DNA of 64,000 nucleotides from an uncultured bacterium (GTDB lineage Bacteria > Patescibacteriota > Minisyncoccia > Phycocordibacterales > GWA1-40-21). Below, piece by piece: positions 1-64,000 of this stretch; within the stretch, counting starts at the first letter, position 1, and each line of letters starts with the position of its first letter. Made by a program: the position numbers and the translations under genes. The notes under the pieces are model-generated. The model had not been told where the DNA came from. It did no database searches and saw only the letters and a list, made by a program, of their open reading frames with translations. The stretch is taken from NCBI GenBank assembly GCA_963798465.1, contig CAWCTC010000001.1, positions 592,465-656,464 on the forward strand, written 5' to 3'.

Positions 1-192
1 ATCAAAAGCAAAAGACGACTTTCCGGATCCGGAAATTCCCGTGATGGCAATCATTTTATTTCTGGGCATCTCAACATTTATATTTTTCAAGTTGTGAGTT
101 CTAGCTCCTTTTACTATGATTTTGCCGGCTTTTTCGTCAAAAATTGTTTTGCCTGCCCCGTGTGAATTTTCACTTTGTTTTGATTTATTCAT
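1..192 (-). CDS. uvrA: Excinuclease ABC subunit A, N-terminal fragment (continues beyond window start)
   Basis: Minus-strand ATG at 192..190. Translation is [64 protein letters not shown], which has the UvrA N-terminal signature VKGARxHNLKNI and Walker A GxSGSGKS. The first ~19 aa are an extension encoded by the H2 element. Confidence 0.85.
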
Positions 193-258
193 GATATTGA
201 TTTTTATTATTTATATAAGGCTAAAAATAAGGTTATTCTTTAAAAATTCTTTACGGGG
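156..258 (-). promoter_or_regulatory. H2 element copy A: inverted arms bracketing an AT-rich loop that holds the uvrA start codon
   Basis: Sense arms are CCCCGTAAAGAATTTTT (258->242) and GAAAATTCACACGGGG (171->156). They form 6 bp + internal loop + 6 bp. The loop contains TATA-rich hexamers and the ATG. Confidence 0.55.
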
Positions 259-283
259 TTTGATTCCTTATCCATATTTATAT

Positions 284-371
284 ACCCGAAAAAATTTTGG
301 CTGACGCATTAAGCTAAATGCTTAATGCCCGTAAAATCTTTGATTTTACATCAGCCAAAACTTTAACGGGT
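284..371 (-). repeat. H1 structured inverted-repeat element copy A
   Basis: Sense arms are ACCCGTTAAAGTTTTGGCTGA ... TCAGCCAAAATTTTTTCGGGT. The interior folds into two hairpins: GTAAAATC/GATTTTAC and GCATTAAGC/GCTTAATGC. Confidence 0.6.
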
Positions 372-1541: not shown

Positions 1542-2282
1542 TTAGTCCACAGGCAATTTCACCTCCACCATAGTTCCTTTATTCAATTCAGATTCTATTT
1601 TTATGCTTCCCTTGTGCATTTCAATGATTTTTCTTGTAGCAAATAAGCCAAGTCCGTTTTGTGTCTGGTCTAGCTCCTTTGCATTTTTGCCTCTATAAAA
1701 TTGCTCAAACATATGTTTCAAGTCGTCTCTTTCTATTCCGATACCATTGTCCTGCAAAACCAGCTTAGCCATATTTCCTTCTTCAGACAGAGTGACAGTC
1801 ACTGTGCCGTTTGGAGAATATCTGAAAGCATTATCAAAAATGTTTGTAAGCGCCAAATCTAAAAGTTTTTTATCTCCAAAAATAGTAACTGGGTCGCATT
1901 CTCTATCATATTGAAGATTTATATTTTTCTCTTTTATCAAATAGTCCAAATCTTTCAAGATTCCCTCTATAATGACGCAAACATTTATTTTTTCTTTTCT
2001 TAAATTAGCAAAACGCTCATTGGAATCCATTTCAGCGGCTTTCAATATTTCACCAATAGTATTTAGTGCTTCAATTATTTTATTATAGCTTTCATTCAAA
2101 ACATCTCTATCTTTGCATTCCTTATTTTTCAAAGCCATGTCCAAACCCCATCTTGCCCCGCTAAGCGGTGTGCGAAGTTTATGAACAAGAGCCAAAATAT
2201 AAGTCTCTTTAAATGGACTTGAGTCTGTTTTCCTTGCCCGGCTTGAATTTCCATTCTGTCCAAATATTGAAAAAAAGTTCAT
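1542..2282 (-). CDS. Cytoplasmic sensor histidine kinase (HisKA + HATPase_c, no TM segment)
   Basis: H-box LVHKLRTPLSG, N-box DNAFRYSP, G1 DNGIGI, G2 GLGLFATRKIIEMHKG. The N-terminus overlaps the H2 3' arm. Confidence 0.85.
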   Translation of the reverse strand: MNFFSIFGQNGNSSRARKTDSSPFKETYILALVHKLRTPLSGARWGLDMALKNKECKDRDVLNESYNKIIEALNTIGEILKAAEMDSNERFANLRKEKINVCVIIEGILKDLDYLIKEKNINLQYDRECDPVTIFGDKKLLDLALTNIFDNAFRYSPNGTVTVTLSEEGNMAKLVLQDNGIGIERDDLKHMFEQFYRGKNAKELDQTQNGLGLFATRKIIEMHKGSIKIESELNKGTMVEVKLPVD

Positions 2283-2340
2283 AGATAAATTATATATAAG
2301 TTTTAAAATGATAGCTACTCTTGGAAATTCTTTGCGGGGT
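2237..2340 (-). promoter_or_regulatory. H2 element copy B, around the histidine-kinase start
   Basis: Arms CCCCGCAAAGAATTTCC (2340->2324) and GGAAATTCAAGCCGGG (2252->2237). The loop contains TATATAAT and the ATG at 2282. Confidence 0.5.
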
Positions 2341-2371
2341 TTTTGAAGATGTCTAAAAATGACATGGTTTA

Positions 2372-2508
2372 TCCGAGAAAATTTTTGCCAATAAAAATTG
2401 TTTGTGTCGACTTCATAAGTACTTAAATTATAACATAACTAGATAAAATTGTGAGTTTGCTCAAATATGCAAATTTTTAACAAACATTGGCAAAAACTTT
2501 AACGGATT
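2372..2508 (-). repeat. H1 element copy B
   Basis: Arms ATCCGTTAAAGTTTTTGCCAAT ... ATTGGCAAAAATTTTCTCGGAT. The closing pair changes in a compensated way (ACCCG/CGGGT becomes ATCCG/CGGAT). The interior carries TGTTATAAT. Confidence 0.6.
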
Positions 2509-2535
2509 AATTATAACATAGAGAAAATAAGTATA

Positions 2536-3780
2536 TTATGAAAATGGTATTTCCTTTTTATCCATTGTTATAAATGACTCTTTGAAGATTTTTTTATAAG
2601 TTTTCCTAAATAAAACTGTTTTTCTGAACTCTTTGAAAAGTGGCCAATCTTTTTTGTATGCATCTTTCATATCCTTTGTTGGACCAATTTTAAGCATCAT
2701 TTTAACTGCCTCTTTTAAATCATCTTTTATAATGGCTACTGCAAGTTTTAATTCATCATCCTCTGCTGACCAATCGCGACTATTTATAAGGTCAATAGCC
2801 ATTTTTTCGGATTTTCCAAATTTCATTGATAATGCCCTGTTAATAATAAACATGAGTTTAAATTTTTCTGAGGAAACTTTTTCAAGTTTATCTGAAAAAT
2901 CTAAAAGCCTTCCAGCAGATAAATTATTATCGTTGTTTAATAAATCTGCTGTCATATTTAATAAGTAAGTATCTGCATCCTCAATTTTATTTTCTTCCAG
3001 TTTTCTCCACAATGCTTGACTCAATTCAATTCCAATACAGAGACACAAATAACAAGAATCCAAAAAATAACCGGGTGTTAGTTCAAGTTTATAACCAACT
3101 TTGATTTTTTTACTCAGTGGAATATTATTCTTTCTACATATATTTATGTATTGTTTAGTCACAATACCATCGGAATGAACAAAAAGATTTCTTCTTTCAG
3201 TTAGCTCTGTAAACTTTTTAATACCGATTTCATTAAAGTTACATTTAATTTTCAATTTTTCTTCTAACCAATCAAAACATTTTTTTCTTCCATCATACAA
3301 TAACTGTTCAATTTCTTTATTTACTAGATATTGTCTGACCTCGGTTATACTTGTAAGCTCTAAGACCTCTGAGGTGCTTATTTTTTTCTCTGTATTATTT
3401 AATAAAAAATTATTTTTTTCAAAAACAATATTTAGTAATCCTCTTAGATGATTATCAAAATAACTGACCAAAGAAATGAAAAGACCTCTTGGTACTGCGC
3501 GTATTGCTAATGAACTATTTCTGACTTTCTTTTCTAAATTCTCCAGAGTTTCCCAATCTTTAATTTTGACTAAATATTCATTCGCAAATTTCTTTTTGGT
3601 CTTTGCAGACAAAAAATTGTCCAAATTATTTTTACCATGTTTAAATTCTTTAATAAGAGGCGCCATTATTAAAGGCAATGAAAATATTAAACAATCTATA
3701 TTATATTTGAAATTCTCAGTAGCCAACTCAAAAGTTGATATCTTTATTTCTTTTTTTTTATTTTTCTTATTATCAGTCAT
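2536..3780 (-). CDS. Hypothetical protein with HEPN-like Rx4H motif (possible RNase / abortive-infection type)
   Basis: TELTERRNLFVHSDGIV fits the HEPN R-x4-6-H signature (RiboL-PSP/Abi-like context). The C-terminal half is helical and repeat-like. No TM segment or signal peptide. Confidence 0.4.
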   Translation of the reverse strand: MTDNKKNKKKEIKISTFELATENFKYNIDCLIFSLPLIMAPLIKEFKHGKNNLDNFLSAKTKKKFANEYLVKIKDWETLENLEKKVRNSSLAIRAVPRGLFISLVSYFDNHLRGLLNIVFEKNNFLLNNTEKKISTSEVLELTSITEVRQYLVNKEIEQLLYDGRKKCFDWLEEKLKIKCNFNEIGIKKFTELTERRNLFVHSDGIVTKQYINICRKNNIPLSKKIKVGYKLELTPGYFLDSCYLCLCIGIELSQALWRKLEENKIEDADTYLLNMTADLLNNDNNLSAGRLLDFSDKLEKVSSEKFKLMFIINRALSMKFGKSEKMAIDLINSRDWSAEDDELKLAVAIIKDDLKEAVKMMLKIGPTKDMKDAYKKDWPLFKEFRKTVLFRKTYKKIFKESFITMDKKEIPFS

Positions 3781-9630: not shown

Positions 9631-9640
9631 AATTAAATAC

Positions 9641-9676
9641 AAAAAAGGGCGGCACCTTCGGTGCCGCCCTTTTTTG
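9641..9676. terminator. Bidirectional GC-rich terminator (GGGCGGCACCTTCGGTGCCGCCC)
   Basis: A6 + 10-bp GC stem + T6, between convergent genes. Identical core at 26955..26977; near-identical at 60922..60944. Confidence 0.85.
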
Positions 9677-11747: not shown

Positions 11748-11929
11748 GCTCTGCTATTCTAGCACATCTTTAGAAATTATCTTAAAAACATTTAACATGC
11801 TATAGTCATTAATATTATGGAGGAAGAAAACAGCAAAAAAACCCGCACAGCTTTTTTTAAAATATGATAGCAACGATGAATATAAGACTTTTATAAGATA
11901 ACACGCATAAATTTTAAATTTAAAACATT

Positions 11930-12631
11930 ATGGAAAATCTGGACGGACGAGTAAGAATAAACAAATATCTGGCAATGCAAGGCATCTCCACAAGAAGAGA
12001 AGCCGATAAGATTATTCTTGCCGGAAAAGTTACAATTAACGGCAGAAAAGCAGTCCTCGGCGACAAAGTTGGAAATGGAGACAAAGTTGAAATTACAAAA
12101 AAAATTAAAAATAATTTTTCCTACTACGCCTATTACAAGCCGAGAGGAATCATCACTCATTCTCCGCAGAAAGGAGAAAAAGATATTGCTTCATCAATAA
12201 GTTTGAAAGGCGTTTTTCCTATTGGAAGACTCGATAAAGATTCCGAGGGATTGATTATTCTCACAGATGACGGAAGGATTACTGACAGGCTTCTAAATCC
12301 AAAATACGAGCATGAAAAAGAATATCTTGTAAAAACCAGAGTTCCGATAAAACTTTCCCATTTATCAATAATGGAAAGAGGAATGGATTTGGAAGGAATA
12401 AAAACTAAGCCATGCAAAACAAAATTCATAAATGAAAATACATTTTCGATTACAATTTCTGAAGGCCAAAAACATCAGATCAGAAGAATGTGCGACGCAC
12501 TCACTTTGCCTATCGAATCCTTGAAAAGAGTCAGAATTATGAATATAAAATTGGGCAATCTAAAACCGAATGCGCACAGAAAAATCGATGATGATGAATT
12601 GAAAGAATTTTTGAAATCGCTTTCTCTTTAA
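11930..12631 (+). CDS. Pseudouridine synthase, RsuA/RluB family (S4 domain + catalytic domain)
   Basis: N-terminal S4 segment (RINKYLAMQGISTRREADKII) and catalytic GRLDKDSEGLIILTDDG. Confidence 0.8.
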   Translation: MENLDGRVRINKYLAMQGISTRREADKIILAGKVTINGRKAVLGDKVGNGDKVEITKKIKNNFSYYAYYKPRGIITHSPQKGEKDIASSISLKGVFPIGRLDKDSEGLIILTDDGRITDRLLNPKYEHEKEYLVKTRVPIKLSHLSIMERGMDLEGIKTKPCKTKFINENTFSITISEGQKHQIRRMCDALTLPIESLKRVRIMNIKLGNLKPNAHRKIDDDELKEFLKSLSL

Positions 12632-13547: not shown

Positions 13548-14653
13548 TGCGTTTGTATGCAAGAATTAAAAGCTGTGACTTCTGCATTATATTGCGCAAC
13601 TAATATTTTTATTTCAGTGGCCAGATTATTATAAAGTGTCGCAGTAGCATTTTTTTCTGCAACATCGGCATTGTAATCCTGAGTGTCTGTTGAAGGAAGT
13701 GCTGAAATTTTTGCATCCAAATTATTTATCGTCGTCATAAGGCTGTTTGCGGAAATTTTATATTGGCTAACTTTTGCCGCTATCGTAGCGTCGGGCTCCG
13801 TGCAATCAGACAACGGCTTTCCAAAAATTTGCGCCGCTATCCAAACACTTTGGCCTTGATAAGTTCCCTGTTCCGCATCGACTCCGATTTCCGTATAATT
13901 CTTGTCGAGAATATTCGCTCTGTGTCCCGGACTGTTCATCCATGCAGTCAGAAGTCCCTGCGAGCTTCCAAAATTTCCAAGAGCAATATTTTCTCCGATG
14001 GTTATATAACCGTAGCCATTTGTCGCAGCTTCTTTTGAAACATCGTCTCCTGTAGGAGAAATGTGCGCAAAATATTGTTTTGAAAACATATCTTTAACTC
14101 TTATGACAGCAATATTGCTTAAAGTATTATTTTTTTGAAGATTAACAAGCGTCGAATCATTTTCTTCTCTTTCCTGATTCGTCAGATAAATTATTTCATC
14201 GCTATTCAAATCAGTTCCGGTAATATTCGGGTTCGGAACATTAGTATTTGATGGAGAAGTATTTACGGAAGAAGTCGTACTTGGCGTTTCAACATTAGAT
14301 ACAACGGAATTGCTATTCAAAGTCTGAACTGGCTCTTGAACTATTTTTACTGTTGATGAAGCGCTTGGAATCGTATAAGAGGTACAAACTTGCTTTCCCA
14401 AATTTGTTCTGAATTCTCCAGCTTTCCATTCACCGGTGGAAATTGACAAAATATACTGTTTGCAGAAATCGCTTTTTACTTGAGCAATTATATTGTTATT
14501 TATGAAATTGAAAATGTTCGAAATACTGTCGGTCAAAGTCTGAGCTTTTGCTACATTGCAAAATAAGGTCGCTGACAGAAAAACAAGCGATGCTATCAAT
14601 AGTTTTCTGGTGCTTGCCCTGTGCGAATTTTTACATTGTTTTAAATTTAACAT
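13544..14653 (-). CDS. Secreted CAP/SCP/PR-1 (YkwD-like) domain protein
   Basis: Signal-like N-terminus. C-terminal GENIALG...LLTAWMNSPGHRANILDKNYTEIGV. The N-terminus MLNLKQCKNSHRA is encoded by the H2 3' arm. Confidence 0.75.
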   Translation of the reverse strand: MLNLKQCKNSHRASTRKLLIASLVFLSATLFCNVAKAQTLTDSISNIFNFINNNIIAQVKSDFCKQYILSISTGEWKAGEFRTNLGKQVCTSYTIPSASSTVKIVQEPVQTLNSNSVVSNVETPSTTSSVNTSPSNTNVPNPNITGTDLNSDEIIYLTNQEREENDSTLVNLQKNNTLSNIAVIRVKDMFSKQYFAHISPTGDDVSKEAATNGYGYITIGENIALGNFGSSQGLLTAWMNSPGHRANILDKNYTEIGVDAEQGTYQGQSVWIAAQIFGKPLSDCTEPDATIAAKVSQYKISANSLMTTINNLDAKISALPSTDTQDYNADVAEKNATATLYNNLATEIKILVAQYNAEVTAFNSCIQTQ

Positions 14654-14719
14654 GATATTTATTCATTAAATACATGACAAACCTATTTTACATCATTTTT
14701 TAACAAATTCATTACGGGG
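14617..14719 (-). promoter_or_regulatory. H2 element copy C, around the SCP-protein start
   Basis: Arms CCCCGTAATGAATTTGT (14719->14703) and AAAAATTCGCACAGGG (14632->14617). The ATG at 14653 is inside the loop. Confidence 0.5.
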
Positions 14720-14829
14720 TTTTTATTCAAAAACATCATAATGCATATTATACAACATAAACGAAAAACGCACTACAGAAACGCATTTTTGCTCACATTT
14801 TTTTTATTTCCAAAAATATGCACAGATTT

Positions 14830-14921
14830 ACCCGAGAAAATTTTTGTTGATGAAAAAATTATGTATAATTTTTCAGCATTATACTAAGATATATACTGCG
14901 TTAACAAAAACTTTAACGGGT
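14830..14921 (-). repeat. H1 element copy C
   Basis: Arms ACCCGTTAAAGTTTTTGTTAA ... TCAACAAAAATTTTCTCGGGT. Two inner hairpins. The interior carries TAGTATAAT. Confidence 0.6.
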
Positions 14922-21479: not shown

Positions 21480-21525
21480 TTGTTTTGATAATTTTAATAG
21501 GATTATTATAGCATTTTTTAAGCAT

Positions 21526-21560
21526 AAAAAAGGGCGGCCGCTTCGCGGCCGCCCTTTTTG
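21526..21560. terminator. Bidirectional GC-rich terminator (GGGCGGCCGCTTCGCGGCCGCCC)
   Basis: A-run + 10-bp GC stem + T-run. Identical core at 46461..46483. Confidence 0.85.
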
Positions 21561-21567
21561 ATTTGTG

Positions 21568-23064: not shown

Positions 23065-23097
23065 ATTATTAATTTACTTTTAGCCAAAACTCTCTTT

Positions 23098-23170
23098 TGT
23101 CATTCCCGCGCAGGCGGGAATCCAGGTTTAATTAAATTGATTCTGGATTCCCGTTTTCACGGGAATGACA
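23098..23170. mobile_element. MITE-like palindromic element (GTCATTCCCGCG.AGGCGGGAATCCAG family)
   Basis: TGTCATTCCCGCGCAGGCGGGAATCCAGG ... CTGGATTCCCGTTTTCACGGGAATGACA, 73 bp, within the helicase 5' leader. Confidence 0.75.
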
Positions 23171-23233
23171 ATCCAAAAAAGTTTTGTAACTAATAGATTG
23201 TTTTATCCTATTTCTATATAGGTTATTAAATGT

Positions 23234-24875: not shown

Positions 24876-24929
24876 TTTTGGATAAGACTAAAGTCCGATA
24901 TTAAATACAAATGCAGACCCATACTCGTG

Positions 24930-25043
24930 TGTCATTCCCGCGAAGGCGGGAATCCAGAATTAATAGTGTCGCACTTATATAGGACGATTGTGCGAGTGAC
25001 TTCGCTAAGTCAAACCTAGATTCCCGTATTCACGGGAATGACA
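24930..25043. mobile_element. Composite MITE (GTCATTCCCGCGAAGGCGGGAATCCAG arms with an inserted GTCGCAC...GTGCGAG module)
   Basis: Arms as in 23098..23170 and 62055..62127. The extra internal unit is also found at 35889..35933, 52566..52599 and inside 61427..61523. Confidence 0.7.
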
Positions 25044-25112
25044 AATGTCATCCAAAACTAATCTTAAAAGGACTGCCTGAAGGCGGGAGTTTTGCTCCCA
25101 AAGGTGGATAAT

Positions 25113-25314: not shown

Positions 25315-25377
25315 TTTTCCTCCTCCTATTTTTTTATTTGCATCCGGCAATAGACTAGCACAAAACTATTTTTCTTG

Positions 25378-25482
25378 CCCAGTGTGAATTTTCATCTAAT
25401 TTAAAATTAATATAGAATTATTTTTTATTAGATATATCAATATTAAACAAAAAGAATAATTCTTGTAAAATTCTTTACTGGG
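25378..25482 (-). promoter_or_regulatory. H2 element copy (stand-alone; contains a 9-aa mini-ORF)
   Basis: Arms CCCAGTAAAGAATTTT (25482->25467) and GAAAATTCACACTGGG (25393->25378), a compensated CCCCG/CGGGG to CCCAG/CTGGG change. The ATG at 25395 gives MKIHTGQEK in a different frame from the other copies. Confidence 0.55.
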
Positions 25483-25489
25483 TGTCAAA

Positions 25490-25522
25490 TAAAAAGAGCT
25501 GGGAAAAATTTCTCCCAGCTCT
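25490..25522 (-). terminator. Intrinsic terminator
   Basis: AGAGCTGGGAGAAATTTTTCCCAGCTCT + T5 on the minus strand, after the stop at 25528. Confidence 0.75.
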
Positions 25523-25527
25523 AATCA

Positions 25528-26010
25528 TCAATTCCAGTTTGGATTTACCCCTTTGTTAAAAGATTGTGCAAAAATTTTATCAAGCCATTCCATAGAACTT
25601 GATACTTCGCAGTTAATGCTTTTGACCTTAACTACTTCCCAGTCTTTTGCCACCCTTATGATGAAAATTGAGTCCTGCGGACCAATTTCTTGCTCTAATG
25701 CATTTTTGAATAGTATGTGAGCAAGAATTTGCTTGTCTATCATTATGTCAATTTCTTTTGCCAACTTCTCGACCTTGTCTATTCTGATCATTTGATCATC
25801 AGAATTTATCAGATCAAAAAGCTTTTCATTCATAAGGTTTATTTTCTTTTCGAGAACCGAACTGTAATACACAAAAAGTTTCTTCGTCTCCTCTTTTTGT
25901 ATCACGCCGATCTTTTCTTCAAAGTCTTGCCGCGCCTTTACTGCCGGTTCTCTCACAATATCAAGAGATCTAACTGTTTTAAGCAGATCCTCAATAAATT
26001 TTAGATCCAT
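25528..26010 (-). CDS. Hypothetical protein, 160 aa
   Basis: AAGGTGGTGA SD upstream of ATG 26010. No recognisable motif. Confidence 0.55.
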   Translation of the reverse strand: MDLKFIEDLLKTVRSLDIVREPAVKARQDFEEKIGVIQKEETKKLFVYYSSVLEKKINLMNEKLFDLINSDDQMIRIDKVEKLAKEIDIMIDKQILAHILFKNALEQEIGPQDSIFIIRVAKDWEVVKVKSINCEVSSSMEWLDKIFAQSFNKGVNPNWN

Positions 26011-26084
26011 GGCAAATCACCACCTTTTTTTTATTTAAACAACTTACCGATATATAAATACCACAAAATTACTATCTAGTCAAA

Positions 26085-26837
26085 TTAAAAAAGTTTTCCG
26101 AGATAATGCTTCAAAGTATAAATCCAGTCTTCATCACCAGCTTCATTTTTCAGCTTTTCAGAAAGAAGCCATTCGAGATATCTTTTATCAGTCTTTGCAA
26201 CTTCCTCTAAAGTTTTATCTTTATATTTTCCAAAATTAAATTTACCGAACAAGCTCGGAGTCGAGGAAATTTCCACCATTTTTTCAATCGCTTTTTCATC
26301 ACTTCCCTCTTCAGCTTTTACTTTTTCAAAAAGTCGCATAAAAAGCGCATAAAGAACTTTCACATCATCTTCGGCTTCGTGTGCGTGAGCATCGACATCA
26401 AGATCCAAATAATATCTCAGATATTGCAGATTGTATTCTGGAATTTTATTTTCTTTGTCCAAAAATCTTGCCACGCGCAAAGTGTCGATATATTTCGGTG
26501 TTTTTATTCCCTCGGCTTCAAGCATTGCGATATCAAACTTCGCATTGTGAGCTACGAGAATTCCATCTTTCAAAATTTTCTTCAATTCTTTCTGCATCTC
26601 ACTTCCCTCAAAACATCCTTTATCAGCGAGCATTTTGTTTGTAATATGGGTAATACTCATAGACTTCACAGACATTGGTAATGGCGGTTTGAAATAACAA
26701 GTTTTGATTTCTTTTGATGTTTTATAGCAAACCTGGCAAAGTCTGTCTTTGCCAATTTCATTTCCAGTCGTTTCAGTATCCAAAAAAATTAATTTTCCTG
26801 TCCCGTGTGAATTTTCGCTTAGTTTTGAATTTATCAT
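26085..26837 (-). CDS. DEDD-type 3'-5' exonuclease (ExoX/DnaQ-like) with DUF3820-like C-terminal domain
   Basis: IFLDTETTG (Exo I), VAHNAKFDIAMLE (Exo II), HEAEDD (Exo III), C-terminal FGKYKDKTLEEVAKTDKRYLEWLL. The N-terminal MINSKLSENSHGTGK is encoded by H2. Confidence 0.75.
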   Translation of the reverse strand: MINSKLSENSHGTGKLIFLDTETTGNEIGKDRLCQVCYKTSKEIKTCYFKPPLPMSVKSMSITHITNKMLADKGCFEGSEMQKELKKILKDGILVAHNAKFDIAMLEAEGIKTPKYIDTLRVARFLDKENKIPEYNLQYLRYYLDLDVDAHAHEAEDDVKVLYALFMRLFEKVKAEEGSDEKAIEKMVEISSTPSLFGKFNFGKYKDKTLEEVAKTDKRYLEWLLSEKLKNEAGDEDWIYTLKHYLGKLF

Positions 26838-26905
26838 AAGATTATGTTTATTAAATATCTTTTATATTTACGATATAGATTATTCTTGTAAAATTCTTTA
26901 CGGGG
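26802..26905 (-). promoter_or_regulatory. H2 element copy, around the exonuclease start
   Basis: Arms CCCCGTAAAGAATTTT (26905->26890) and GAAAATTCACACGGG (26816->26802). TTTACA follows the 5' arm. The ATG at 26837 is in the loop. Confidence 0.55.
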
Positions 26906-26948
26906 TCCATGAACCATATTATACTAAAAATAGTTTAAAAAACTAATC

Positions 26949-26984
26949 AAAAAAGGGCGGCACCTTCGGTGCCGCCCTTTTTTG
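26949..26984. terminator. Bidirectional GC-rich terminator (same core as 9647..9669)
   Basis: AAAAAAGGGCGGCACCTTCGGTGCCGCCCTTTTTTG. Confidence 0.85.
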
Positions 26985-26999
26985 ATTTTGCATTACAAA

Positions 27000-32551: not shown

Positions 32552-35447
32552 TTAGATAAATCTTATTCCAAAAAGCACTACGGCTAAAAACATGCTCAAC
32601 ACCAGCACTAGTTTAACATTAATCGGTGAATTTCCAACAACAGCAGTTTGTTTGTCATTCTGAGAAGCTGATATTGCGCTGGCTGGAATAATGTCATCGC
32701 TTTTTACTTTAACAATTTTCGTTGAAGATGAAATGATTTCTTTTGCCGGACTTGGAGAAATTATTGGAGACGAAGTTGATAGAAATATTTTTACTGCAAC
32801 TGCTGTCGAAGACGAAATTTCTTCCGCTGTAGGCAAAACTTGCGTCGAAGTCGAAGTAGTTTGACCCGTTGAAAACGGAAGAACATAAGGATATGAAAAA
32901 CCTCCACCTCCGCCGGCGGTTATCATCGCCGGATTACTATTTGACGCCGATGCAGTGGTAGCGGTAGTTGTCGCTGGAAAATCCGGAAAAACTATATTAT
33001 TAATTTCCGGAGAAAGCGTGAATTCAATTTTACCGTCGCCATTTTCATCGACAGTCAAAGGAGAAGAACTTCCTATATCGCCTCCGGCTGGAATATCAAT
33101 CGTGGCGATTGTGCTTGTCGATGAAGGTATTCCGGTAAAAGTTGTTGAAGCGGAAATATTATTTTCCGAAACTTCCTGAACATTAAGCGTAAACGATCCG
33201 CTTGAATATCCGCTCATCACTACATTTGCTCCGGAAGAAGCCGGGACGCTTATGTAAGTCACCTCGCCGAATGTTTGATAATCGCTTCCGGGAATATTTT
33301 GTTCGACTTGATTTGTTGTTGTGGAAAAGCCGGTGAAGTTTCCTTCGTCGTCATAAACGCCAAGATAGAGCGGTGAATGAAGGATAAAGTGAAGTTGTTT
33401 TCCGATATTTATTTCCGGCGGAGATGAAGTGGAAATATATGTCGGTAACGGGTTTGAATTTTTAGAAATAATATTTTTAATAAAATCAAGGAGATTTGTT
33501 ACTTCAAGAATATTCGCGTGAGAAAAAGGAAAAAGACCTAAAGCAATTTTGAAGGGATTATCAATATTATATTTATGTAAATCCACCCAATATTTTCCAG
33601 TGGTTGTTGCTGTGTCAGTCCATAATGCACTTGGCACAACAACCGTTCCATCGCCATCGCTTGTCATCACGGGATCATATTGCAAAACAGGCTCGATGAT
33701 AGGATGAAAGAGACATGGCATAAAACCAATTTGCAAAAGACAACTTGTATAACCCTGATAATAAGAAATTGTTTTCAAAGTATCCTCTCCCCATCCGGCG
33801 ATTTCTGTCAGATCAACTCCGGCAGGCGGAGTCCAATTATCAAGCTCGCCTTCGTGAAGATTTTCCGCACTATCCAAAAGATTTTCATTTGCCGAAGTTG
33901 GAAAAACAAGCGGATTCGTCACAGGCAAATCCGCGCGCGATGAGTCGTCAAGAAAATTATCCAGGCCTTGTTCCGAATTAATTTCACTTCCATATTTTTC
34001 CCGCCAAGAAGCAAGAAAATCTGAATTATCAAACGTGACAACCGGGTCGCTGACATCATTGAAAATATTGCGAGGACGGAAGAAGATTATATGCGGATGG
34101 CATATTTTGTCCAAGTTCGCGAGCATCTTCCGGCGAGAAAGTCATTGAGAGCCAAGTCAGCGGAAGCCCTGTATCAAATCCATGAAGAATTGCTCCGATT
34201 GCATTCGGCGTTCCTGTCTGCGGAACCGCGACAAAAATTATTTGATCGATAAGTTTTGAAGCATCCGGACCAAGCGCATCAGTCAGAGCTTTTGTTACAA
34301 GTCCGCCGTTTGAATGTGCGATGATTGTAACTTTTCCAGTTTGAGAACTTGCGGCAAGTTCTCGCAATTCATTTATGATATACGGACTTGAAGTCGAGCC
34401 TTTGTCGCCAGAATAATAAATTTTCCCGTCAGAAGTTTCATTTCCATTATTTAAAATATCTGCAAGCGACAGACGCCAGTCGTATGGCGCAGCCGCCCAG
34501 TCATTTATTGTGCCGGCAGATTTCATTTTATTCATCGTAGAAATAAACGAAGAATAAACATTCCCAACATAATACGCTGTATCAATTACATCTTTTGTAT
34601 AAAAATCTGGATTATTTGGCTCGCCGTCAGAATTTAAATCGAGAACAGAATTGTCGTGCAAAATTCCTGGTTCCCAAATTTTTTCTTCATTTCCATTGCC
34701 GTCTGTTTCATAAAGTCGGCTTCCTTCAAGACCTGGAATAAATAAAACATTTGAACAGCAAGTCGGCTTCGGCGGTTCAATGACTTCCACAGTTCTTGTT
34801 GACGAAGCGATATTTCCGGCGCCATCCGATACTGTATAAACAACAGAATACGTTCCGACTGTGGTCAGATCGACATCGCTTGAAGTCGAAATATTTTCAG
34901 TGATATCTCCGTCAATAGTATCCGAAGCTGTCGCTCCCGGATCCGTATAAATTTCTGTACTGCTCGCTGAAATTTTTAATGGATTGTCTCCCAAAATATT
35001 AATTATGGGAGCAGTTGGATCAAAAATATTATTGAAAGTGCAATTCACTGTATCATATGGAAAAACTCCAATTGATAACCCATTATCACAAGTTTCTGTA
35101 GTAACCCGAGAATCCGTGCTGGTGCAACTCACATCGGACATTTTCCAACTAGAAGTAGCAACTTGAGTAAGATATAAAGTGGAGGAGCCATTAAAATTAT
35201 AAATAGTTGTACCTGTAGAATAATTGCCTTGTCCATTTTGAGTTTCTATGCCGAATTGTTGAAAACTATACAACGGTGTGAGTAACTCCAAATTGTAATT
35301 AAATTCAGCATCTCCGCCGGAGCTATTTGTGATTACGTTAACAATCGAGTAAGGCAATCGAAAAGCATAAACTTTATTTAAAATAGAAAATAAAATTGCA
35401 AACAAAAAAATAACCAAACCGAATTTATAAAAAATATTTTTTATCAT
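32552..35447 (-). pseudogene. Large surface protein with Ig-like segment and alpha/beta-hydrolase (lipase-like) domain, split by one frameshift near 34056..34126
   Basis: N-terminal TM helix. DPGATASDTIDGDIT...YTVSDGAGN (DUF5011/HYR-type Ig-like). LFIPGLEGSRLY and IIAHSNGGLV (nucleophile elbow). Two ORFs overlap by 70 nt in different frames. Confidence 0.55.
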
Positions 35448-43597: not shown

Positions 43598-43730
43598 ACC
43601 CGCTAAAGTTTTTGCTGACGTGTTGAAAATGAAAATTTATTAGATTTATCTTTAGTATAAGGTTGTCTATATAAAATAAACATATTCATATAATCTCAAC
43701 ACATTTTCATCAGCAAAAATTTTCTCGGGT
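43598..43730 (+). repeat. H1 element copy D, 10 nt upstream of the ppdK start
   Basis: Arms ACCCGCTAAAGTTTTTGCTGA ... TCAGCAAAAATTTTCTCGGGT. The interior contains TCATATAAT (43689..43694) and a bulged extension TGAAAATG/CATTTTCA. Confidence 0.6.
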
Positions 43731-43739
43731 AAAAAATCA

Positions 43740-46445: not shown

Positions 46446-46454
46446 ACAATCAAA

Positions 46455-46489
46455 TTAAAAGGGCGGCCGCTTCGCGGCCGCCCTTTTAA
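46455..46489. terminator. GC-rich terminator (same core as 21532..21554)
   Basis: AAAAGGGCGGCCGCTTCGCGGCCGCCCTTTT. Confidence 0.85.
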
Positions 46490-46584
46490 ATTATTTATAA
46501 AGTAGTACACTTATTCTAAATCAGTTCTTTATAATTCTCTCAAATGAGAGATTAAATATAAAAATCCTTAAGGAGGTTTTGCTT

Positions 46585-56268: not shown

Positions 56269-56841
56269 TTATTTTATCAACTCCTCGACATTTCCCGAAA
56301 GGTCTGTGGTGTCTCCCTCGACCTTCGAAACATCTCCGTAAATATTGGTAACATCGCCTTTTATATTTGTCACATGGCCTTTTATATTGCTGACGTAACC
56401 TTTAATGTTTGTGACATTGCCGGTTATATTTGTCACATCTCCTTGCAGATCGGAAACATCGCCAATTATTTTCGTCGTATCGCCTTCAATATGGCTTACA
56501 TCGCCGTGAATATTTGTAACATCACCGCTGATATTGGAAACATCGCCGACAATTCCGCTCAAGTCTCCGCGGATTTTTGAAACATTTCCGCGAATTTTTG
56601 ACACATCGCTTTTGATATTAGTCACATCGCCTTTTATGTTCGAAACATCGCCATGCAAGCCGGAAATATCTCCGCTGATGTTTGAAACGTCGCCGGAAAT
56701 TTTATGTATGCTCAAATCGCCGGATATTTTTGAAACATCGCCTTTTATGGATTTAAAATCGCCCATTATATTGTCATGCAAGCCTGTGACATTTTCCGTA
56801 TTCAGCTGTTTGAAAGCTATATTTATTTTTTTGAGTGTCAT
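56269..56841 (-). CDS. Heptad-repeat protein: about 22 tandem GDV(S/T)NIx units, no signal peptide
   Basis: GDVSNIS GDISGLH GDVSNIK GDVTNIK SDVSKIR GNVSKIR ... GDVTNIY GDVSKVE GDTTDLS. TGATATCAT lies 6 nt upstream of the ATG. The plus-strand ORFs 56263..56580 and 56534..56851 are shadows of the repeat. Confidence 0.7.
   Translation of the reverse strand: MTLKKINIAFKQLNTENVTGLHDNIMGDFKSIKGDVSKISGDLSIHKISGDVSNISGDISGLHGDVSNIKGDVTNIKSDVSKIRGNVSKIRGDLSGIVGDVSNISGDVTNIHGDVSHIEGDTTKIIGDVSDLQGDVTNITGNVTNIKGYVSNIKGHVTNIKGDVTNIYGDVSKVEGDTTDLSGNVEELIK
56290..56760 (-). repeat. 21-bp tandem coding repeat underlying the heptad protein
   Basis: Periodicity of GGNGAYGTNWCNAAYATHNNN read over about 470 bp. 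Confidence 0.75.
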
Positions 56842-56957: not shown

Positions 56958-58538
56958 TCACGATTTCGTGCCATAAAGTTCACGAAACGTCATCCAAATT
57001 TTCTTGTACTTACCTGTCGGAACTTCTTCTTTCAAATGATTGATATCAAAACTCGAATCTTCTTCAACAATTTTTTCAATATGATCGAGAAGCGTGCCGA
57101 TTTTAATTCCTTTTATTTCCAAAATTTCTTTCAAACCCATTCCTTGTGAAAGCATATTTTTGGTTTCTTCTATCGGCGAGATTCTTCTTTTTTTCTTTTT
57201 GTCTATTTTCGTTCCTTCCGGCGGAGCAACTTTTTTCAAAAATTCTTCCTGCTTATTTTTTATTTCTTTGTCGGAAAGAGTATAAAGCCATTGTTTATCG
57301 CCATCTGACATTTCTTTCAAATCTTCATCAAAAATAGAAACATCCTCACGAACTTCAAGCGCATTTTTATTCATTCCAAGCAAACGCAGACCCTCAAGAG
57401 TTCGCACACGAGAAAGCGCAACATAGCCCATTCCTTTTTCAAAAGATTTTGAAAGATCGACTTCAACTGCATCCAAACTCATACCTTGGCTTTTGTGCAC
57501 AGTTATAGCCCAAGCCAAGCGAAGCGGATATTGTGTGATTGTCGCTTTCACTTTTCCTTCATCTTCAATCACCCAATTTACTTTTTCCGGAATAATTATT
57601 TTTCCTGAAGTAAGCATGACTTTCGGTCCATAGTTTGAACACTCAATAACTTTTCCCAAAGTTCCATTTGCATATCCTTCTTCAAAATTATTTTTTACAA
57701 ACATCACTCTCGCTCCTTTTTTCAAACGCAAAACTTCTGGCGCAAGACAGCTTTTTTTCAATGCTTCGACAAGCGGTTTTCTTCCTTTGTCTTCCATTTG
57801 ATATGTAAAAATTTGCCCTGGAAGTTTGTTGAGCTCGGCATCATTAATAGTATCTACATTTATATTGTGAGTGTGAAGTTTTGTCGGCTCAATTCCCTCT
57901 TTCAAACAAGCATTATTTCTTGAATTCAAACAAAGTAAAGATTCTTCGCTCAAATTTCCTCCGCGAATTCCATTTAAAATTTTTATAAACTTGTCATCTT
58001 TATGTCTGAATTGTTCTTCAAGATAGCAAATTTTCAAATTAAGTTTTTTCCAAGCTTCAGACTTATATGCAAATTGAGATTCTTTTTCGCCCACTCTTGA
58101 AACCGGAGGAAGCTGGAAAAAATCTCCGCAAAGTATCACTTGCATTCCACCAAATGGAAGCTGATTTCTTTTCAAATGTCTTGCGATTCTTTCTATCAAA
58201 TCCAAGCGAAAATCGATGAATCATTGAAACCTCATCAATTATCAAAACTTCTGTTTCTCTAAATCTATCATGCAAATATTTCTTACTTTCCAAATCTTCC
58301 AAGATCATATTCTGTAAGTTCATCACGAATACCAAGTCCGCTCCAAGAATGAATCGTCGTTCCACCCATATGAGTCGCCGCAATTCCAGTCGAAGCGGTC
58401 ACGCCAACTTCAACTCCTTTATTTTTAAGGAATTTTATATATTCATTTAAAAGATGCGTTTTACCAGCTACCCGCCGCTCCTGTGATATAGCAGTTGTAT
58501 CCCATCTTCAATATTTCTAGTGCATCCTTTTGGGTCAT
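56958..58538 (-). pseudogene. Pif1/RecD-like superfamily-1 helicase, at least 3 frameshifts (one inside Walker A)
   Basis: [24 protein letters not shown] then GGTAGCTGGTAAAACG, where GSGKT is expected. IIDEVSMI, GGMQVILCGDFFQLPPV, ITVHKSQGMSLD, ALSRVR. Confidence 0.8.
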
Positions 58539-59182: not shown

Positions 59183-59869
59183 TTATTTAATTCCCTTTCT
59201 CCACTCATCAATCAATTTATGATTTCCTGAAAGTAAAACTTTTGGAACCACATATTTCTTCTTTTTATATATCAAAACTTCCGGTCTTGTATAAACTTCA
59301 CTGCTTGAAATTCTTTCTTCTTCAAGAGAGGCTTTGTTTCCAAGAACACCATCTATTTGTCTTGAGACTGAATCCATAATGAGCATAGCTGGAAGTTCCC
59401 CACCGGTAAGCACAAATGGACCAACAGTAATTTTTTCTGTTTTGAATATTTTATTCACTCTTTCATCTATCCCTTCATATCTTCCAGAAATAAAAATAAT
59501 ATCTGTAAATTTTTTTGCAGTTTCTTTTGCATAAGCAGTATCAAATTGTTTTCCACCTGGACTTAAAAATATAATTTTTACTTTATGACTTTTGCCTTTT
59601 GACTTTTTACTTGCTGAAAGCGCTTTCTCAATTGCTTTTGCAACTGGCTCGGCTTGCATCACCATTCCTGGACCACCGCCATAAGGAATATCGTCAACTC
59701 TTTTATATGGCTTGTCTTTCTTTTTTTGCGAAGGTGAAACCTTCGCAAAATCGCGTGGATTATAAAAACTTACCTTCACCTTTTTCTCTCTGATTGCCCG
59801 TGCCAAAATCGACTCATTCAAATATGAGGTAAAGGATTCTGGAAATAATGTGATTATGTGAAAATTCAC
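59183..59869 (-). CDS. trmD: tRNA (guanine37-N1)-methyltransferase
   Basis: The GTG start at 59869 gives (M)NFHIITLFPESF, the canonical TrmD N-terminus. GGGPGMVM, SPGGK, GRYEGIDERV. The track TTG start at 59908 would add 13 aa encoded by the H2 arm. Confidence 0.9.
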   Translation of the reverse strand: MNFHIITLFPESFTSYLNESILARAIREKKVKVSFYNPRDFAKVSPSQKKKDKPYKRVDDIPYGGGPGMVMQAEPVAKAIEKALSASKKSKGKSHKVKIIFLSPGGKQFDTAYAKETAKKFTDIIFISGRYEGIDERVNKIFKTEKITVGPFVLTGGELPAMLIMDSVSRQIDGVLGNKASLEEERISSSEVYTRPEVLIYKKKKYVVPKVLLSGNHKLIDEWRKGIK

Positions 59870-60007
59870 AGGGTAGTGAAATTTCAAATTGTTTTTATTG
59901 CCAAACAACTTGAAATTTTAATTAATGTTTATTTGATAAATTATAAATCTATTGATATATATAACTTTTCTAAAAACAAGGCAATGATTTGAAATTCTAC
60001 TACCCTG
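59869..60007 (-). promoter_or_regulatory. H2 element copy E (21-nt arms) ending at the trmD GTG
   Basis: CAGGGTAGTAGAATTTCAAAT (60007->59987) pairs with ATTTGAAATTTCACTACCCTG (59889->59869): 19 Watson-Crick pairs, 1 GU, 1 mismatch. CCCCG/CGGGG is replaced by CAGGG/CCCTG. Confidence 0.6.
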
Positions 60008-60014
60008 TTCATTT

Positions 60015-60142
60015 ACCCGAGAAAATTTTTGCCAATAAAAATTGCGCGACTTTAAGGTTTAACTAGATAACATTTATAACTCTAACCCAATATCACAAAA
60101 ATCGCAATTTTTGCTAGCGCGTTGGCAAAAACTTTAACGGGT
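60015..60142 (-). repeat. H1 element copy E
   Basis: Arms ACCCGTTAAAGTTTTTGCCAA ... TTGGCAAAAATTTTCTCGGGT. Flanks extend the stem (AAAT/ATTT). Confidence 0.6.
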
Positions 60143-60908: not shown

Positions 60909-60915
60909 AATTAAT

Positions 60916-60950
60916 TATAAAGGGCGGCACCTCCGGTGCCGCCCTTTATA
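60916..60950. terminator. GC-rich terminator (GGGCGGCACCTCCGGTGCCGCCC variant)
   Basis: Differs in the loop by one nucleotide from the 9647 and 26955 copies. Confidence 0.8.
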
Positions 60951-60970
60951 ATTAATTTTTTGAACTTTAA

Positions 60971-61992: not shown

Positions 61993-62054
61993 AGACGATA
62001 TACTAACAAAATACGACATAAAGTCAACTGATTTTTAAAAGCAATTTATCTTTA

Positions 62055-62127
62055 TGTCATTCCCGCGAAGGCGGGAATCCAGGTTGAATTGAATTAATTC
62101 TGGATTCCCGCCTTCGCGGGAATGACA
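62055..62127. mobile_element. MITE-like palindromic element (GTCATTCCCGCGAAGGCGGGAATCCAG family)
   Basis: TGTCATTCCCGCGAAGGCGGGAATCCAGG ... CTGGATTCCCGCCTTCGCGGGAATGACA, 73 bp. Confidence 0.75.
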
Positions 62128-62174
62128 TACAAAAATATACAAATCAAGGTTTTTTTGCTATGCTTATTTCATAA

Positions 62175-64000
62175 ATGAAAAAAGATAAACAATTCTGGAG
62201 GAAGGACAGTAATGACAGCAGGAAAACTGAACATCAGGGAAAACTGAAGACTCTGACAGGAAAAATCAAAGCAATTCGCGGCCACACCGCCTATTTTATA
62301 GCCGACACAAACAATCTTGAAGTTGAAATCCCGACAAGACAGATAAACACTGCAATGTCCGGCGACAAGGTTGAAATAAAACTATTCAAGAAAAATAAAA
62401 CCGGAGTTCATGAAGGCGAAGTAATAAAAGTCATAAGTCGTGCAAAAAATTATTTTGTCGGCGTGATTGAAATTTCCGAAAAAGGAATTCTCGTCGTGCC
62501 CGATGATAGAAGAGTAAAAATTTCCGTAAAAATCGCAAAAGAAAAAGCCGGCACGCTGAAAAATGACGACAAAGTCAGAGTTAAAATTACAAAATGGGTT
62601 CAAACACCTGGTTTTTCTGAAGGAGAAATTGTAAATATTCTTGGAAAAAAAGGCGACAATTCTACAGAAATGAATTCCATCGCGGTAGATAAAGGTTTCG
62701 ACATGGATTTTTCGGAAAGAGTTTTAAATGAATCGCACAATATTTTCGAGCATAACAAAACAATTTCGCCCGAGGAAATTTCAAAAAGAAAAGATTTGAG
62801 AAATACTTTCACTTGCACGATTGATCCAAAAACCGCAAAAGATTTTGACGATGCCATTTCATTCAAGAAACTTCCAAATGGAAATCTTGAAATCGGTATT
62901 CATATCGCCGACGTTTCTTATTATGTCACTGAAAAAAGTGAGCTCGACAAAGAAGCTTACGAACGCGGTTGTTCGGTTTATTTGCCCGATAGAACGATTC
63001 CAATGCTTCCCTTTGAGCTTTCGGACAATCTTTGCTCTTTGAGTGAAGGCGACGAAAAACTTGCCTTTTCTGCAATTTTTGAAATCACCCCCCATGCAAA
63101 AGTCCATACAAGATGGTTTGGGAAATCCGTCATCAAATCCGCAAAAAGATTCACTTATGAAAGCGCGCAGGAAATATTAGATAGTGGCAACTCCTCTTTG
63201 TCATTGCAAGTGGAACGAAGTAATCCAGAAAAATTAGAAATAGATTCCCGTCTTCACGGGAATGACAACATGAAATATTTTGAAGCACTTGATACTTTGA
63301 ACAAGATTTCCAAAATATTCAGAAAGGAAAAAACGCAGAAAGGCGCGATAGATTTTGAATCAGGAAGAAATCGCTTTTGAGCTCGACACGGAAGGCAGAC
63401 CAATCAGGATTTACAAAAAACAAAGACTCGACACGCACAAGCTCGTCGAGGAATTCATGCTTCTCGCAAATAAAGAAGTCGCGGAGTTCGTTTATAAATA
63501 TGAAAAAAATTCCGGAAAACTTTTTCCTCTGCCATATCGTATTCACGATTTGCCAGACAAAGAAAGAATCGCTGAGCTTGCAGTTTTCGTAAAAGCTTTA
63601 GGCCATGAGCTTTTCATCGGACCAATCTGGAAATGTCACCGGCAAGGATATGCAGGCGCTTTTTGAGCAGATTGAAGGCAAGGCTGAGGAAGCACTGGTA
63701 AAAACCGCAGCGATCCGCTCGATGTCAAAAGCTATTTATTCAACAAAAAATATCGGTCACTTCGGACTTGGCTTTTGAATATTACGCGCACTTCACCTCG
63801 CCTATCCGAAGATATCCGGATCTTTTAGTCCACAGAATTTTAAATAAAATTTTAACAAAAGAGAGCATCGCCCACGAAAAGTCTGCTGACCTCGTGGCAA
63901 GAGAAAAAAATCTCGCATTTTATGAAAAAGCTTGTCTTCACTCGACCGACCAAGAAATAAAAGCTTCAGAAGCTGAGCGCGATGGCAGAAAATACAAACA
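62175..64000 (+). pseudogene. rnr: Ribonuclease R, at least 3 frameshifts and an in-frame MITE insertion; runs off the window end
   Basis: N-terminal OB/CSD region. RNB motifs CTIDPKTAKDFDDAIS, IGIHIADVSYYV and [23 protein letters not shown] occur in different frames. Breaks are near 63365, 63610 and 63775. Confidence 0.8.
63199..63267 (+). mobile_element. 69-bp MITE inserted in frame in the RNase R coding sequence
   Basis: TGTCATTGCAAGTGGAACGAAGTAATCCAG ... AGATTCCCGTCTTCACGGGAATGACA. 69 nt is 23 codons, read through as SLQVERSNPEKLEIDSRLHGNDN without a stop. Confidence 0.7.

Follow-up and report, generated by a model that had tools for sequence, protein, structure and literature searches.

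We examined a 64,000-nucleotide (nt) window of DNA from an uncultured Patescibacteriota bacterium, the whole stretch analysed here, and focused on H2, a repeat on the minus strand at the start of a DEDD exonuclease gene. Further copies of H2 were found at the starts of uvrA, a histidine-kinase gene and a CAP/SCP gene, and one copy stood alone. H2 is a discrete unit of 104–114 nt overall and 107–109 nt in the window, which runs CCCCGTAAAGAATTTT ... GAAAATTCACACGGGGCAAG and is conserved across its full ~108 nt, arms and interior alike, with a constant spacing of 74–76 nt between the cores of its two inverted arms. A first-pass annotation of the window, made from the letters alone, had placed the arms of the exonuclease copy where we found them (Table 1), and it had correctly quoted both the ATG in the loop of four genes and the similar peptides with which their proteins begin. 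Register and frame of the loop ATG agree among these four genes, and the frame runs on through the 3' arm. The ATG lies ~35 nt from the 3' end of the element, and the open frame exits in codon phase 2 after a tag of ~15 codons, M-x-N-L-K-x-S-E-N-S-H-G-A-R/S-K. Our Pfam scan of 20 open reading frames (ORFs) of the window confirmed the RNase_T exonuclease, the histidine kinase, CAP/SCP, TrmD and a UvrA ABC fragment, and the RNase_T domain was found to begin at residue 17, right behind the tag peptide.

A hidden Markov model (HMM) built from the five window copies recovered exactly these five in the window (E = 1e-25 to 1e-28) and nothing further below E = 0.1. The 5'-arm pattern, with up to 3 mismatches allowed, gave 6 matches against 1.56 expected, a number reached by none of 100 shuffles; the sixth match, at 5693, is probably a chance one. 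The first-pass annotation had listed six copies, five of which are those recovered by the model, while the one at trmD belongs to a different repeat family that the model does not match. Its coordinates needed two corrections: the histidine-kinase arm begins at 2339 and not at 2340, and the 3' limit of the exonuclease copy lies 5 nt further, at 26797 (..GGGACAGG), as fixed by whole-genome alignment to a relative.

The exonuclease copy is an insertion. Our close relative, represented by contigs L038 and L039, is syntenic with window positions 36097–14725, with 77–99% nucleotide identity across the aligned blocks. L038 reads TATAATATGGTTCATGGA|AAAATTAATTTTTTT, and the window carries 109 extra bases at the bar (26905->26797, CCCCG...GGGACAGG). 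Positions 10005 and 10006 of L038 are contiguous, positions 26906 and 26796 of the window flank the insert, and nothing has been duplicated or lost. At this place L038 reads TATAATATGGTTCATGGAAAAATTAAT, and a 238-aa (amino acid) exonuclease gene is called there from the original ATG; the empty site has the form TATAAT-ATGGTTC-ATGGA|AAAATTAAT. The closest ortholog of the exonuclease is 94% identical, has 238 aa and begins MEKLIFLDTETTG with no tag. Among the 120 closest orthologs, ~116 likewise start untagged with MEKLIFLD, so the N-terminal residues encoded by H2 are lineage-specific additions, as first suspected. The tag was found at the same junction in four sequences (the window, P0002, P0028 and P0040), each of which has untagged close relatives, which implies that either insertion recurred at a single nucleotide or the element was lost precisely.

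The comparison extends to other loci. The relative likewise lacks the stand-alone H2, within the compared window positions 14725–36097. The CAP/SCP gene of L038 encodes 361 aa from an older ATG against 369 aa in the window, and this gene call suggests that the CAP/SCP copy is absent there too, the L038 locus ending just before the insertion point. An intact tag was present in none of the 120 UvrA orthologs listed, including one at 93% identity. The H2 junction in uvrA falls after ..TKTGFN in L018 and before TIFDEK in the window, L037 and L006, which implies at least two independent insertions within the first ~12 codons. Both filled and empty states were found among RluB, TruB, HisRS-like and CAP orthologs, with an additional decayed state for RluB; the RluB-like orthologs have an intact H2 in L019 and L011 and none in L009 and L015.

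Table 1. Coordinates of H2, H1 and associated features in the window
Feature	Position	Strand	Remarks
H2 in exonuclease gene	26797..26905	-	109-nt insertion CCCCGTAAAG...CACACGGGACAGG; alignment to L038/L039 breaks exactly there
Exonuclease H2, 5' arm CCCCGTAAAGAATTTT	26890..26905	-	pairs with the 3' arm in minimum-free-energy and alignment consensus folds
Exonuclease H2, 3' arm GAAAATTCACACGGG plus 5-nt tail ACAGG	26797..26816 (arm 26816->26802)	-	translated E-N-S-H-G-T-G
Loop ATG of exonuclease H2	26835..26837	-	opens 250-aa ORF 26085-26837
Original exonuclease ATG	26908..26910	-	now begins a 19-codon upstream ORF with its stop in the loop
TATAAT -10 box of exonuclease gene	26918..26923	-	7 nt before the original ATG; leaderless-type; same layout in empty sites L038, L012
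Intrinsic terminator of upstream isochorismatase gene	26945..26987	-	bounds the exonuclease promoter region
H2 in uvrA	152..258	-	107 nt; loop ATG 190-192; computational excision restores the N-terminus
H2 in histidine-kinase gene	2233..2339	-	107 nt, variant loop; ATG 2280-2282
H2 in CAP/SCP gene	14613..14719	-	107 nt; ATG 14651-14653
Stand-alone H2	25374..25482	-	109 nt; loop ATG lost (ATA); arm pair CCCAG/CTGGG; within a window-specific 687-nt insert
Probable decayed H2 before pseudouridine-synthase (RluB-like) gene	11842..11953	+	weak HMM match, E = 0.14; arms unpaired; MENLDGR resembles SENSHGA
H1 upstream of CAP/SCP	14827..14920	-	clean insertion relative to L038
H1 of histidine-kinase gene	2368..2506	-	between -10 box and original ATG; absent in L018, L037
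H1 upstream of uvrA	281..370	-	absent at the same place in L037
H1 at pyruvate phosphate dikinase	43599..43733	+	ends 6 nt before ATG
H1 upstream of trmD	60012..60141	-	
trmD miniature inverted-repeat transposable element, unrelated to H2	59869..60007	-	139 nt, codon 2, after nucleotide 5; terminal repeats CAGGGTAGT/ACTACCCTG; TrmD domain follows

H2 had been thought portable, a source of the start codon and of ~15 initial codons for unrelated genes, and the wider search bears this out. A pattern scan of 185,579 species genomes gave 37 loci; copies beyond the window were collected with a pattern that demanded intact arms and left their varying positions free. In total, 47 HMM-validated copies were found in the window and the genomes of 13 further species, all of them metagenome-assembled genomes of Patescibacteria/Paceibacteria type. 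The HMM did not validate two of the 37 matches, both from other phyla (L020, Mariprofundaceae; L033, Methanosarcinaceae), which we treated as chance. A long ORF is opened from the in-loop ATG in 33 copies, each time in the frame N-S-H-G-A. The genes that carry H2 are housekeeping genes unrelated to one another and form no regulon: they encode UvrA, a histidine kinase, a DEDD exonuclease, a CAP protein, a glycosyltransferase, TrpRS, TruB and RluB, as well as RNase H, HisRS-like, cysteine desulfurase-like, FAD oxidoreductase, ScpB, glutaredoxin-like and membrane proteins. A shared regulon, including an SOS regulon suggested by uvrA and the exonuclease, was considered and discarded on account of TrpRS, TruB, RluB, RNase H, the glycosyltransferase, ScpB and the membrane proteins. 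The family also includes nested insertions, head-to-tail tandems and decayed copies. As an observation on the assemblies, some metagenome contigs have their first base ~70 nt ahead of the 5' arm of H2, a sign that these repeats are where assemblies break.

Conservation of H2 was found at the nucleotide level, in agreement with the first-pass annotation. Across 44 aligned copies the third-codon positions of the 3' arm are almost invariant, and the constraint therefore lies on the nucleotides and not on the peptide. A functional peptide tag was ruled out by this synonymous-site invariance together with the non-coding 5' arm. Searching a set of 5.8 billion proteins with a 64-aa query of concatenated tag peptides, an uninformative query, gave 131 word-sharing candidates and none at E <= 10.

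We then evaluated 13 proposed arm pairs, arranged in two helices, in the same 44 copies, with 500 shuffles and slid controls for comparison. Standard pairs made up 97.2% of the cells, against 23–67% in the slid controls, and 15 cells carried double changes, against 2.7 +/- 1.4 in the shuffles, none of which reached the observed number. The compensated change that had been noticed in the arms of the stand-alone copy is real and generalises, with three base pairs covarying (C-G to U-A or A-U; U-A to C-G; U-A to C-G). An asymmetric internal loop is also conserved in the alignment. Minimum-free-energy folding of each of the five window copies gives the long-range stem, though as a weak fold (z-scores -0.25 to -3.3), and structural conservation is predicted for the closing stem only, with nothing in the loop. 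Unpaired cells on the sense strand were mostly C.A (10), followed by G.U (3); this excess of C.A gives no support for pairing specifically in the sense RNA, and a hairpin in DNA or in the opposite strand fits at least equally well. Retention of the GC clamps in a genome of 35% GC argues for some selection. In diverged orthologous pairs, where 4-fold sites are saturated (43% identical), identity amounts to 94% in the arms, 70% in the loops and 56% in the upstream flank; the constraint on the arms is overstated here because the search pattern required intact arms, and decayed copies do exist. Separately, two exonuclease-borne copies from the same metagenome (L042 1745-1862 and L044 72-183) have loops ~93% identical, and one of them has lost both GC clamps through GC-to-AT changes, so that arm decay can be fast after constraint lifts.

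Such arm conservation could mean that H2 is mainly a cis-regulatory RNA of the host, a hairpin in a shared 5' leader that is bound by a protein or RNase and gives common post-transcriptional control, its mobile origin being secondary. We judge this unlikely. The three covarying pairs, the conserved internal loop, the high arm identity against saturated synonymous sites and the recovery of the stem as the best fold in the five window copies all speak for it, as do the upstream promoter, from which the element should be transcribed, and the precedent of Correia hairpins that RNase III cleaves in mRNA (PMC10969869). The carriers, however, are functionally incoherent, close relatives do without the element at the same genes, and decayed copies still serve intact genes; the weak stem and the predominance of C.A over G.U on the sense strand point the same way. 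None of the attributes of a known RNA that we looked for, namely an Rfam match, a structured core and a coherent regulon, was found in H2. The Rfam scan of the whole window at the gathering threshold gave no match, an E-value scan around H2 matched only the neighbouring terminator, which was taken as noise, and a scan for tRNA and tmRNA found none.

Regarding transcription, the first-pass annotation had proposed that H2 supplies a promoter, and TATAAT-like strings do occur in the loop. Better promoters, of the form TGnTATAAT, lie upstream of the 5' arm, and the empty exonuclease sites already have TATAAT 7–8 nt ahead of the ATG; H2 sits downstream of both box and ATG, and the proposal is not supported. 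Many H2 copies have a -10-like box, often TGnTAnAAT, ~12–35 nt upstream of the 5' arm; in many H2-bearing genes a TGnTAnAAT-type box stands 6–10 nt before an ATG that is itself 4–29 nt upstream of the 5' arm. Such a layout would be expected of mRNAs that are leaderless or have a very short leader. Gene starts sampled in the relative were mixed: some were of leaderless type, few had a Shine-Dalgarno sequence and many were plain A/U-rich. Across copies there was no positional signal of a fixed promoter upstream of the arm, and the left boundary is sharp at AA|CCCC. Since promoter and original ATG lie outside H2 and are older than it, H2 should be transcribed in full.

A portable promoter cassette, with transcripts starting inside the element, seems to us improbable, and somewhat more so than regulatory RNA. 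It would account for the AT-rich loops with TATAAT-like strings, for the good TGnTATAAT box often seen in the loops of the related family H1, and for the stand-alone copy, which begins only 13 nt after a terminator and leaves no room for an upstream promoter. Yet the empty sites already have a -10 box 6–10 nt before the original ATG, no -10-like hexamer stands at a fixed workable distance from the H2 ATG, and apart from general AT richness the element shows no promoter signal tied to position. With a promoter in the loop, moreover, the 5' arm would not be transcribed, and the complementarity of the arms would have no role in RNA.

Inverted repeats that flank a segment with an ATG also recall the recombination sites of an invertible promoter or start-codon switch, the alternative offered by the first-pass annotation, and inversion of Correia elements has been reported (PMC10969869). 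All 47 copies have a single loop orientation relative to the asymmetric arms, and none is inverted. Moreover, the segment is merely ~75 bp long, promoter and original ATG lie outside it, no recombinase was found in the 20 scanned window ORFs, and arms and loop are present or absent as a block, which leaves a switch with a negligible probability.

The old ATG of a filled gene opens a short ORF that ends in the loop, and nearly all frames that enter from upstream are closed before the H2 ATG. The loop ATG and its open frame are kept in the copies fused to genes and lost in 6 of ~13 unfused copies. No alternative canonical start precedes the conserved protein core, and the H2 ATG is preceded by a sequence (ATTTAATAAA-N8-12-ATG) like that of native starts without Shine-Dalgarno in this organism. 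In the L042 exonuclease, both GC clamps and the original ATG have been lost and the ORF from the H2 ATG is intact. Similarly, the RluB gene of the window begins inside an apparently decayed 3' arm (MENLDGR against SENSHGA). Use of the H2 ATG thus has direct evidence in decayed copies and is argued indirectly, from sequence, for intact ones, where it seems probable. A design based on termination and reinitiation found no support, as the stops of the upstream ORF are scattered from -66 to +66 nt around the H2 ATG.

Computational excision of H2 from CCCCG to CA[AG]G restored an ORF from an ATG at most 45 nt upstream in 23 of the 33 non-tandem copies, and out-of-phase boundaries did so in only 4–6 of the 33. 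The restored N-termini look native (MEKLIFLDTETTG, MENKKILLSGVKPTG, MQKVIIFTDGSSRG and that of uvrA), and MDKESNKTIFDEK is another original N-terminus. This result fixes the boundaries of the element and shows that it exits in codon phase 2, the same phase as the surviving insertion points. It would also suit a reading in which H2 is removed by RNA excision or bypassed in translation, so that the original protein is made from the original ATG: exact removal restores the phase, the arms bring the junctions together, and the first codons of the original gene show conservation at the histidine-kinase and CAP/SCP loci. The in-phase property, however, is equally needed by the H2 ATG and does not discriminate. 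In addition, take-off and landing codons are mismatched (for example GAC against GGA in the exonuclease), the H2 ATG and frame persist where H2 is fused to a gene, and L042 keeps its ORF in spite of having neither original ATG nor arms. With these points considered, excision or bypass is very unlikely.

Overall, H2 is probably a non-autonomous insertion element of the MITE (miniature inverted-repeat transposable element) type, with a built-in replacement start codon, imperfect inverted repeats and no target-site duplication. It is small and multi-copy (47 copies in 14 genomes), has terminal inverted repeats and differs in presence between relatives. Duplication of the target site was not found: the exonuclease site has five A's when empty and 1+4 when filled, and a search of the flanks gave a significant repeat in only 1–2 of the 47 copies, clear in L019 (17 nt) and marginal in L034. 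The L019 copy (2511-2660, minus strand) is unique in that 17–30 nt of the gene's 5' end stand duplicated around it (AAAGGGATTAGAAT[A/C]AA to either side), a hint that insertion may now and then involve template switching or repair.

A-rich sequence borders the element on its left, where (A)TCAAA|, GAATAAAA| and ACAA| recur. The 3' end of the element, CAAG, resembles these left flanks, and head-to-tail tandems abut as ..GGGGCAAG|CCCCG... A palindrome, GTGAAAATTCAC, lies 10 nt from the 3' end; no conserved 5' hairpin was seen by eye, and no systematic search for end hairpins was made. By analogy, these traits are suggestive of single-strand mobilised HUH elements, as a lead only. The PATEs and REPINs derived from IS200/IS605 leave no duplication, have hairpin ends, form head-to-tail tandems, can in principle excise and are mobilised by HUH Y1 transposases. 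They insert 3' of a short flank motif that resembles the element's 3' tetranucleotide, which the (C/A)AAA| flank and CAAG end of H2 recall; unlike H2, whose ends pair with each other, they have a separate same-strand hairpin at each end. No TnpA or RAYT gene turned up, though no systematic search for transposase genes was made.

We also compared H2 with other small repeats. Mycobacterial interspersed repetitive units (MIRUs) are small operon-oriented repeats whose internal short ORFs overlap the flanking stop and start codons and preserve translation of the neighbours. They differ from H2 in being intergenic direct repeats that leave the N-terminus unchanged, and not palindromic insertions in the first codons. 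Putative mobile promoters are near-identical upstream regions before unrelated genes of one genome. The H2 block, in contrast, stands downstream of the promoter, with start codon and coding sequence inside it, and H1 is closer to that concept. Correia elements have a TA duplication, an IHF site and outward promoters. The Correia/NEMIS elements of Neisseria resemble H2 as ~100–150-bp MITEs that lie mostly just upstream of genes and whose terminal repeats pair in co-transcribed mRNA (PMC10969869). H2 differs from them in that it has no duplication, supplies no promoter and donates a start codon and coding sequence. Rickettsia palindromic elements (RPEs) resemble H2 as short palindromic repeats within many unrelated housekeeping genes, to whose proteins they add a conserved peptide (PMC10969869), and are regarded as selfish DNA tolerated inside coding sequence. 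Unlike RPEs, which are internal in-frame insertions, H2 is not read through in frame: it has stops in almost every frame of its 5' half and restarts at its own ATG, and it is confined to the first ~10 codons, where it replaces the N-terminus. These differences set H2 apart from RPEs by description only. The effects listed in a 2024 review of prokaryotic MITEs are promoters, IHF sites, RNase III/E processing, inactivation of genes, small RNAs and fusions in frame; the last are exemplified mainly by RPEs, and a MITE that donates a start codon is not described there (PMC10969869). We found no paper on MITEs or shared leaders in the candidate phyla radiation (CPR)/Patescibacteria.

Based on this, we propose that this Paceibacteria/Patescibacteria lineage harbours two or more related families, among them H1 and H2. 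H2 would insert into an A-rich stretch in the first 2–10 codons, occasionally just upstream of the ATG. Host promoter and ATG would remain upstream, and the ORF from the old ATG would run into the 5' arm and stop in the AT-rich loop. With an in-phase landing, the host protein would be made from the H2 ATG and its first residues replaced by the tag; most likely the interrupted gene stays expressed with a swapped N-terminus. The whole of H2 would be transcribed as the 5' end of the mRNA, and the in-loop ATG would be used without a Shine-Dalgarno sequence, as is apparently the case in many genes of the organism. The hairpin may serve mobilisation as single-stranded DNA, shield the 5' end of the mRNA, or both. 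Mobilisation would leave no duplication and is possibly of HUH or IS200-IS605 type. H1 would be complementary: its place is between -10 box and ATG, and its loop often contains a promoter-like box.

Several observations weigh against H2 being such a selfish insertion element. Copies at gene starts outnumber intergenic ones by ~3.5:1, which is poorly explained by random insertion followed by selection and calls for targeting or for rapid loss of intergenic copies. A cognate autonomous element was not found, as no unpaired or long-spaced arms occurred in ~330 kb of locus sequence, and Pfam revealed no transposase, recombinase or other mobilising gene in the 20 window ORFs. The high identity of the arms hints at constraint beyond selfish persistence. 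Lastly, the first codons of the original gene that remain upstream of H2 are unexpectedly well conserved at two loci, histidine kinase and CAP/SCP, more so between species than synonymous sites or the remainder of the proteins. At the histidine kinase (window 2340-2366), MSFLDIFK is found in three genomes (the window compared with L018 and L037) whose kinases are only 60% identical. At the CAP gene (window 14720-14741), the codons read M(M/I)(F/L)LNKN.

As an insertion element, H2 would represent a different route for selfish DNA in essential genes, in which the first codons are cut and a new start is handed over. Introns and inteins, by comparison, splice themselves out. For annotation, a foreign N-terminal peptide would be shared by dozens of proteins in each Patescibacteria genome, and the true original starts would appear as short upstream ORFs. 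The comparisons also expose many leaderless-type starts, with TGnTATAAT 6–10 nt before the ATG, and H2 would offer a natural experiment on initiation without Shine-Dalgarno sequences in CPR bacteria that cannot be grown on their own. Targeting of gene starts or precise excision, if either holds for the elements, would point to an undescribed mechanism of mobilisation. More speculatively, H1, H2 and perhaps the trmD element could represent an undescribed lifestyle of mobile DNA in ultra-compact CPR genomes, homing to leaderless starts with spare parts (a promoter in H1, a start codon and N-terminus in H2). It would involve duplication-free and recurrent insertion at the same nucleotide and perhaps precise, gene-restoring excision, and the GC clamps would mark recognition by a dedicated enzyme or a control hairpin shared by dozens of housekeeping mRNAs. 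We hold this as a tentative possibility, more doubtful than not.

The arms of H1 had been said to resemble those of H2, and H1 is indeed a related family with the same terminal motifs. Its termini read CCCGTTAAAG...CTCGGGTAAA, with the family pattern CCCGTTAAAGTTTTTGCCAA ... TTGGCAAAAATTTTCTCGGGTAAA. Five of 11 H1 copies lie 3–4 nt after a TGnTATAAT box, and the last A of the element often completes the host ATG. At CAP/SCP, the insertion against L038 falls at ATATCA|TCTGTG, with at most 1 nt of ambiguity and no duplication. The distal stem of H1 covaries (GCCAA/TTGGC, GCTGA/TCAGC and GGCTGA/TCAGCC). H1 was also found in L010, L013, L027 and L036, and the H2 and H1 patterns had no match in the viral contigs of IMG/VR.

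The trmD MITE has a 4-bp TGAA duplicated at 60011-60008 and 59868-59865. Its terminal G together with the duplicated TG recreates a GTG start, from which TrmD would keep MNFHIITLFPE. With H1, H2 and the trmD MITE, three families occur at gene starts, and both targeting and survivorship are possible explanations.

The stand-alone H2 lies in a 687-nt insert (window 25340-26026) that is absent from close relatives and has the direct repeat AAATAAAAAA at both flanks. Besides H2, the insert contains a terminator and a 160-aa ORF (25528-26010) without a Pfam match.

We also identified other repeats in the window. Another palindromic family, GTCATTCCCGCGAAGGCGGGAATCCAG ... CTGGATTCCCG....CGGGAATGAC, forms ~85-nt intergenic inverted pairs at window positions 23092-23181, 24924-25054, 62049-62138 and 63232-63278 and at 750-822 of L012, and related sequences are nested within the H2 loops of L021 and L025. 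Two further ORFs appeared split and may reflect frameshifts, pseudogenes or assembly errors: a surface protein (32552-35447, minus strand) with SpaA/LCAT domains, which has 962 aa in relatives and is represented here by two overlapping ORFs of 524 and 463 aa, and a Pif1-like helicase ORF (56958-58383, minus strand), which matches only the second half of the Pfam profile and is closely preceded by a 106-aa ORF. GC-rich bidirectional terminator hairpins, AAAAAGGGCGGCACCTTCGGTGCCGCCCTTTTT, follow unrelated genes in near-identical form at 9640-9676, 21525-21561, 26948-26984, 46454-46490 and 60915-60951, two of them being 100% identical over 37 nt. Finally, positions 56311-56773 contain ~14 tandem 21-nt units within a 190-aa ORF (56269-56841, minus strand), which encodes a heptapeptide-repeat protein.

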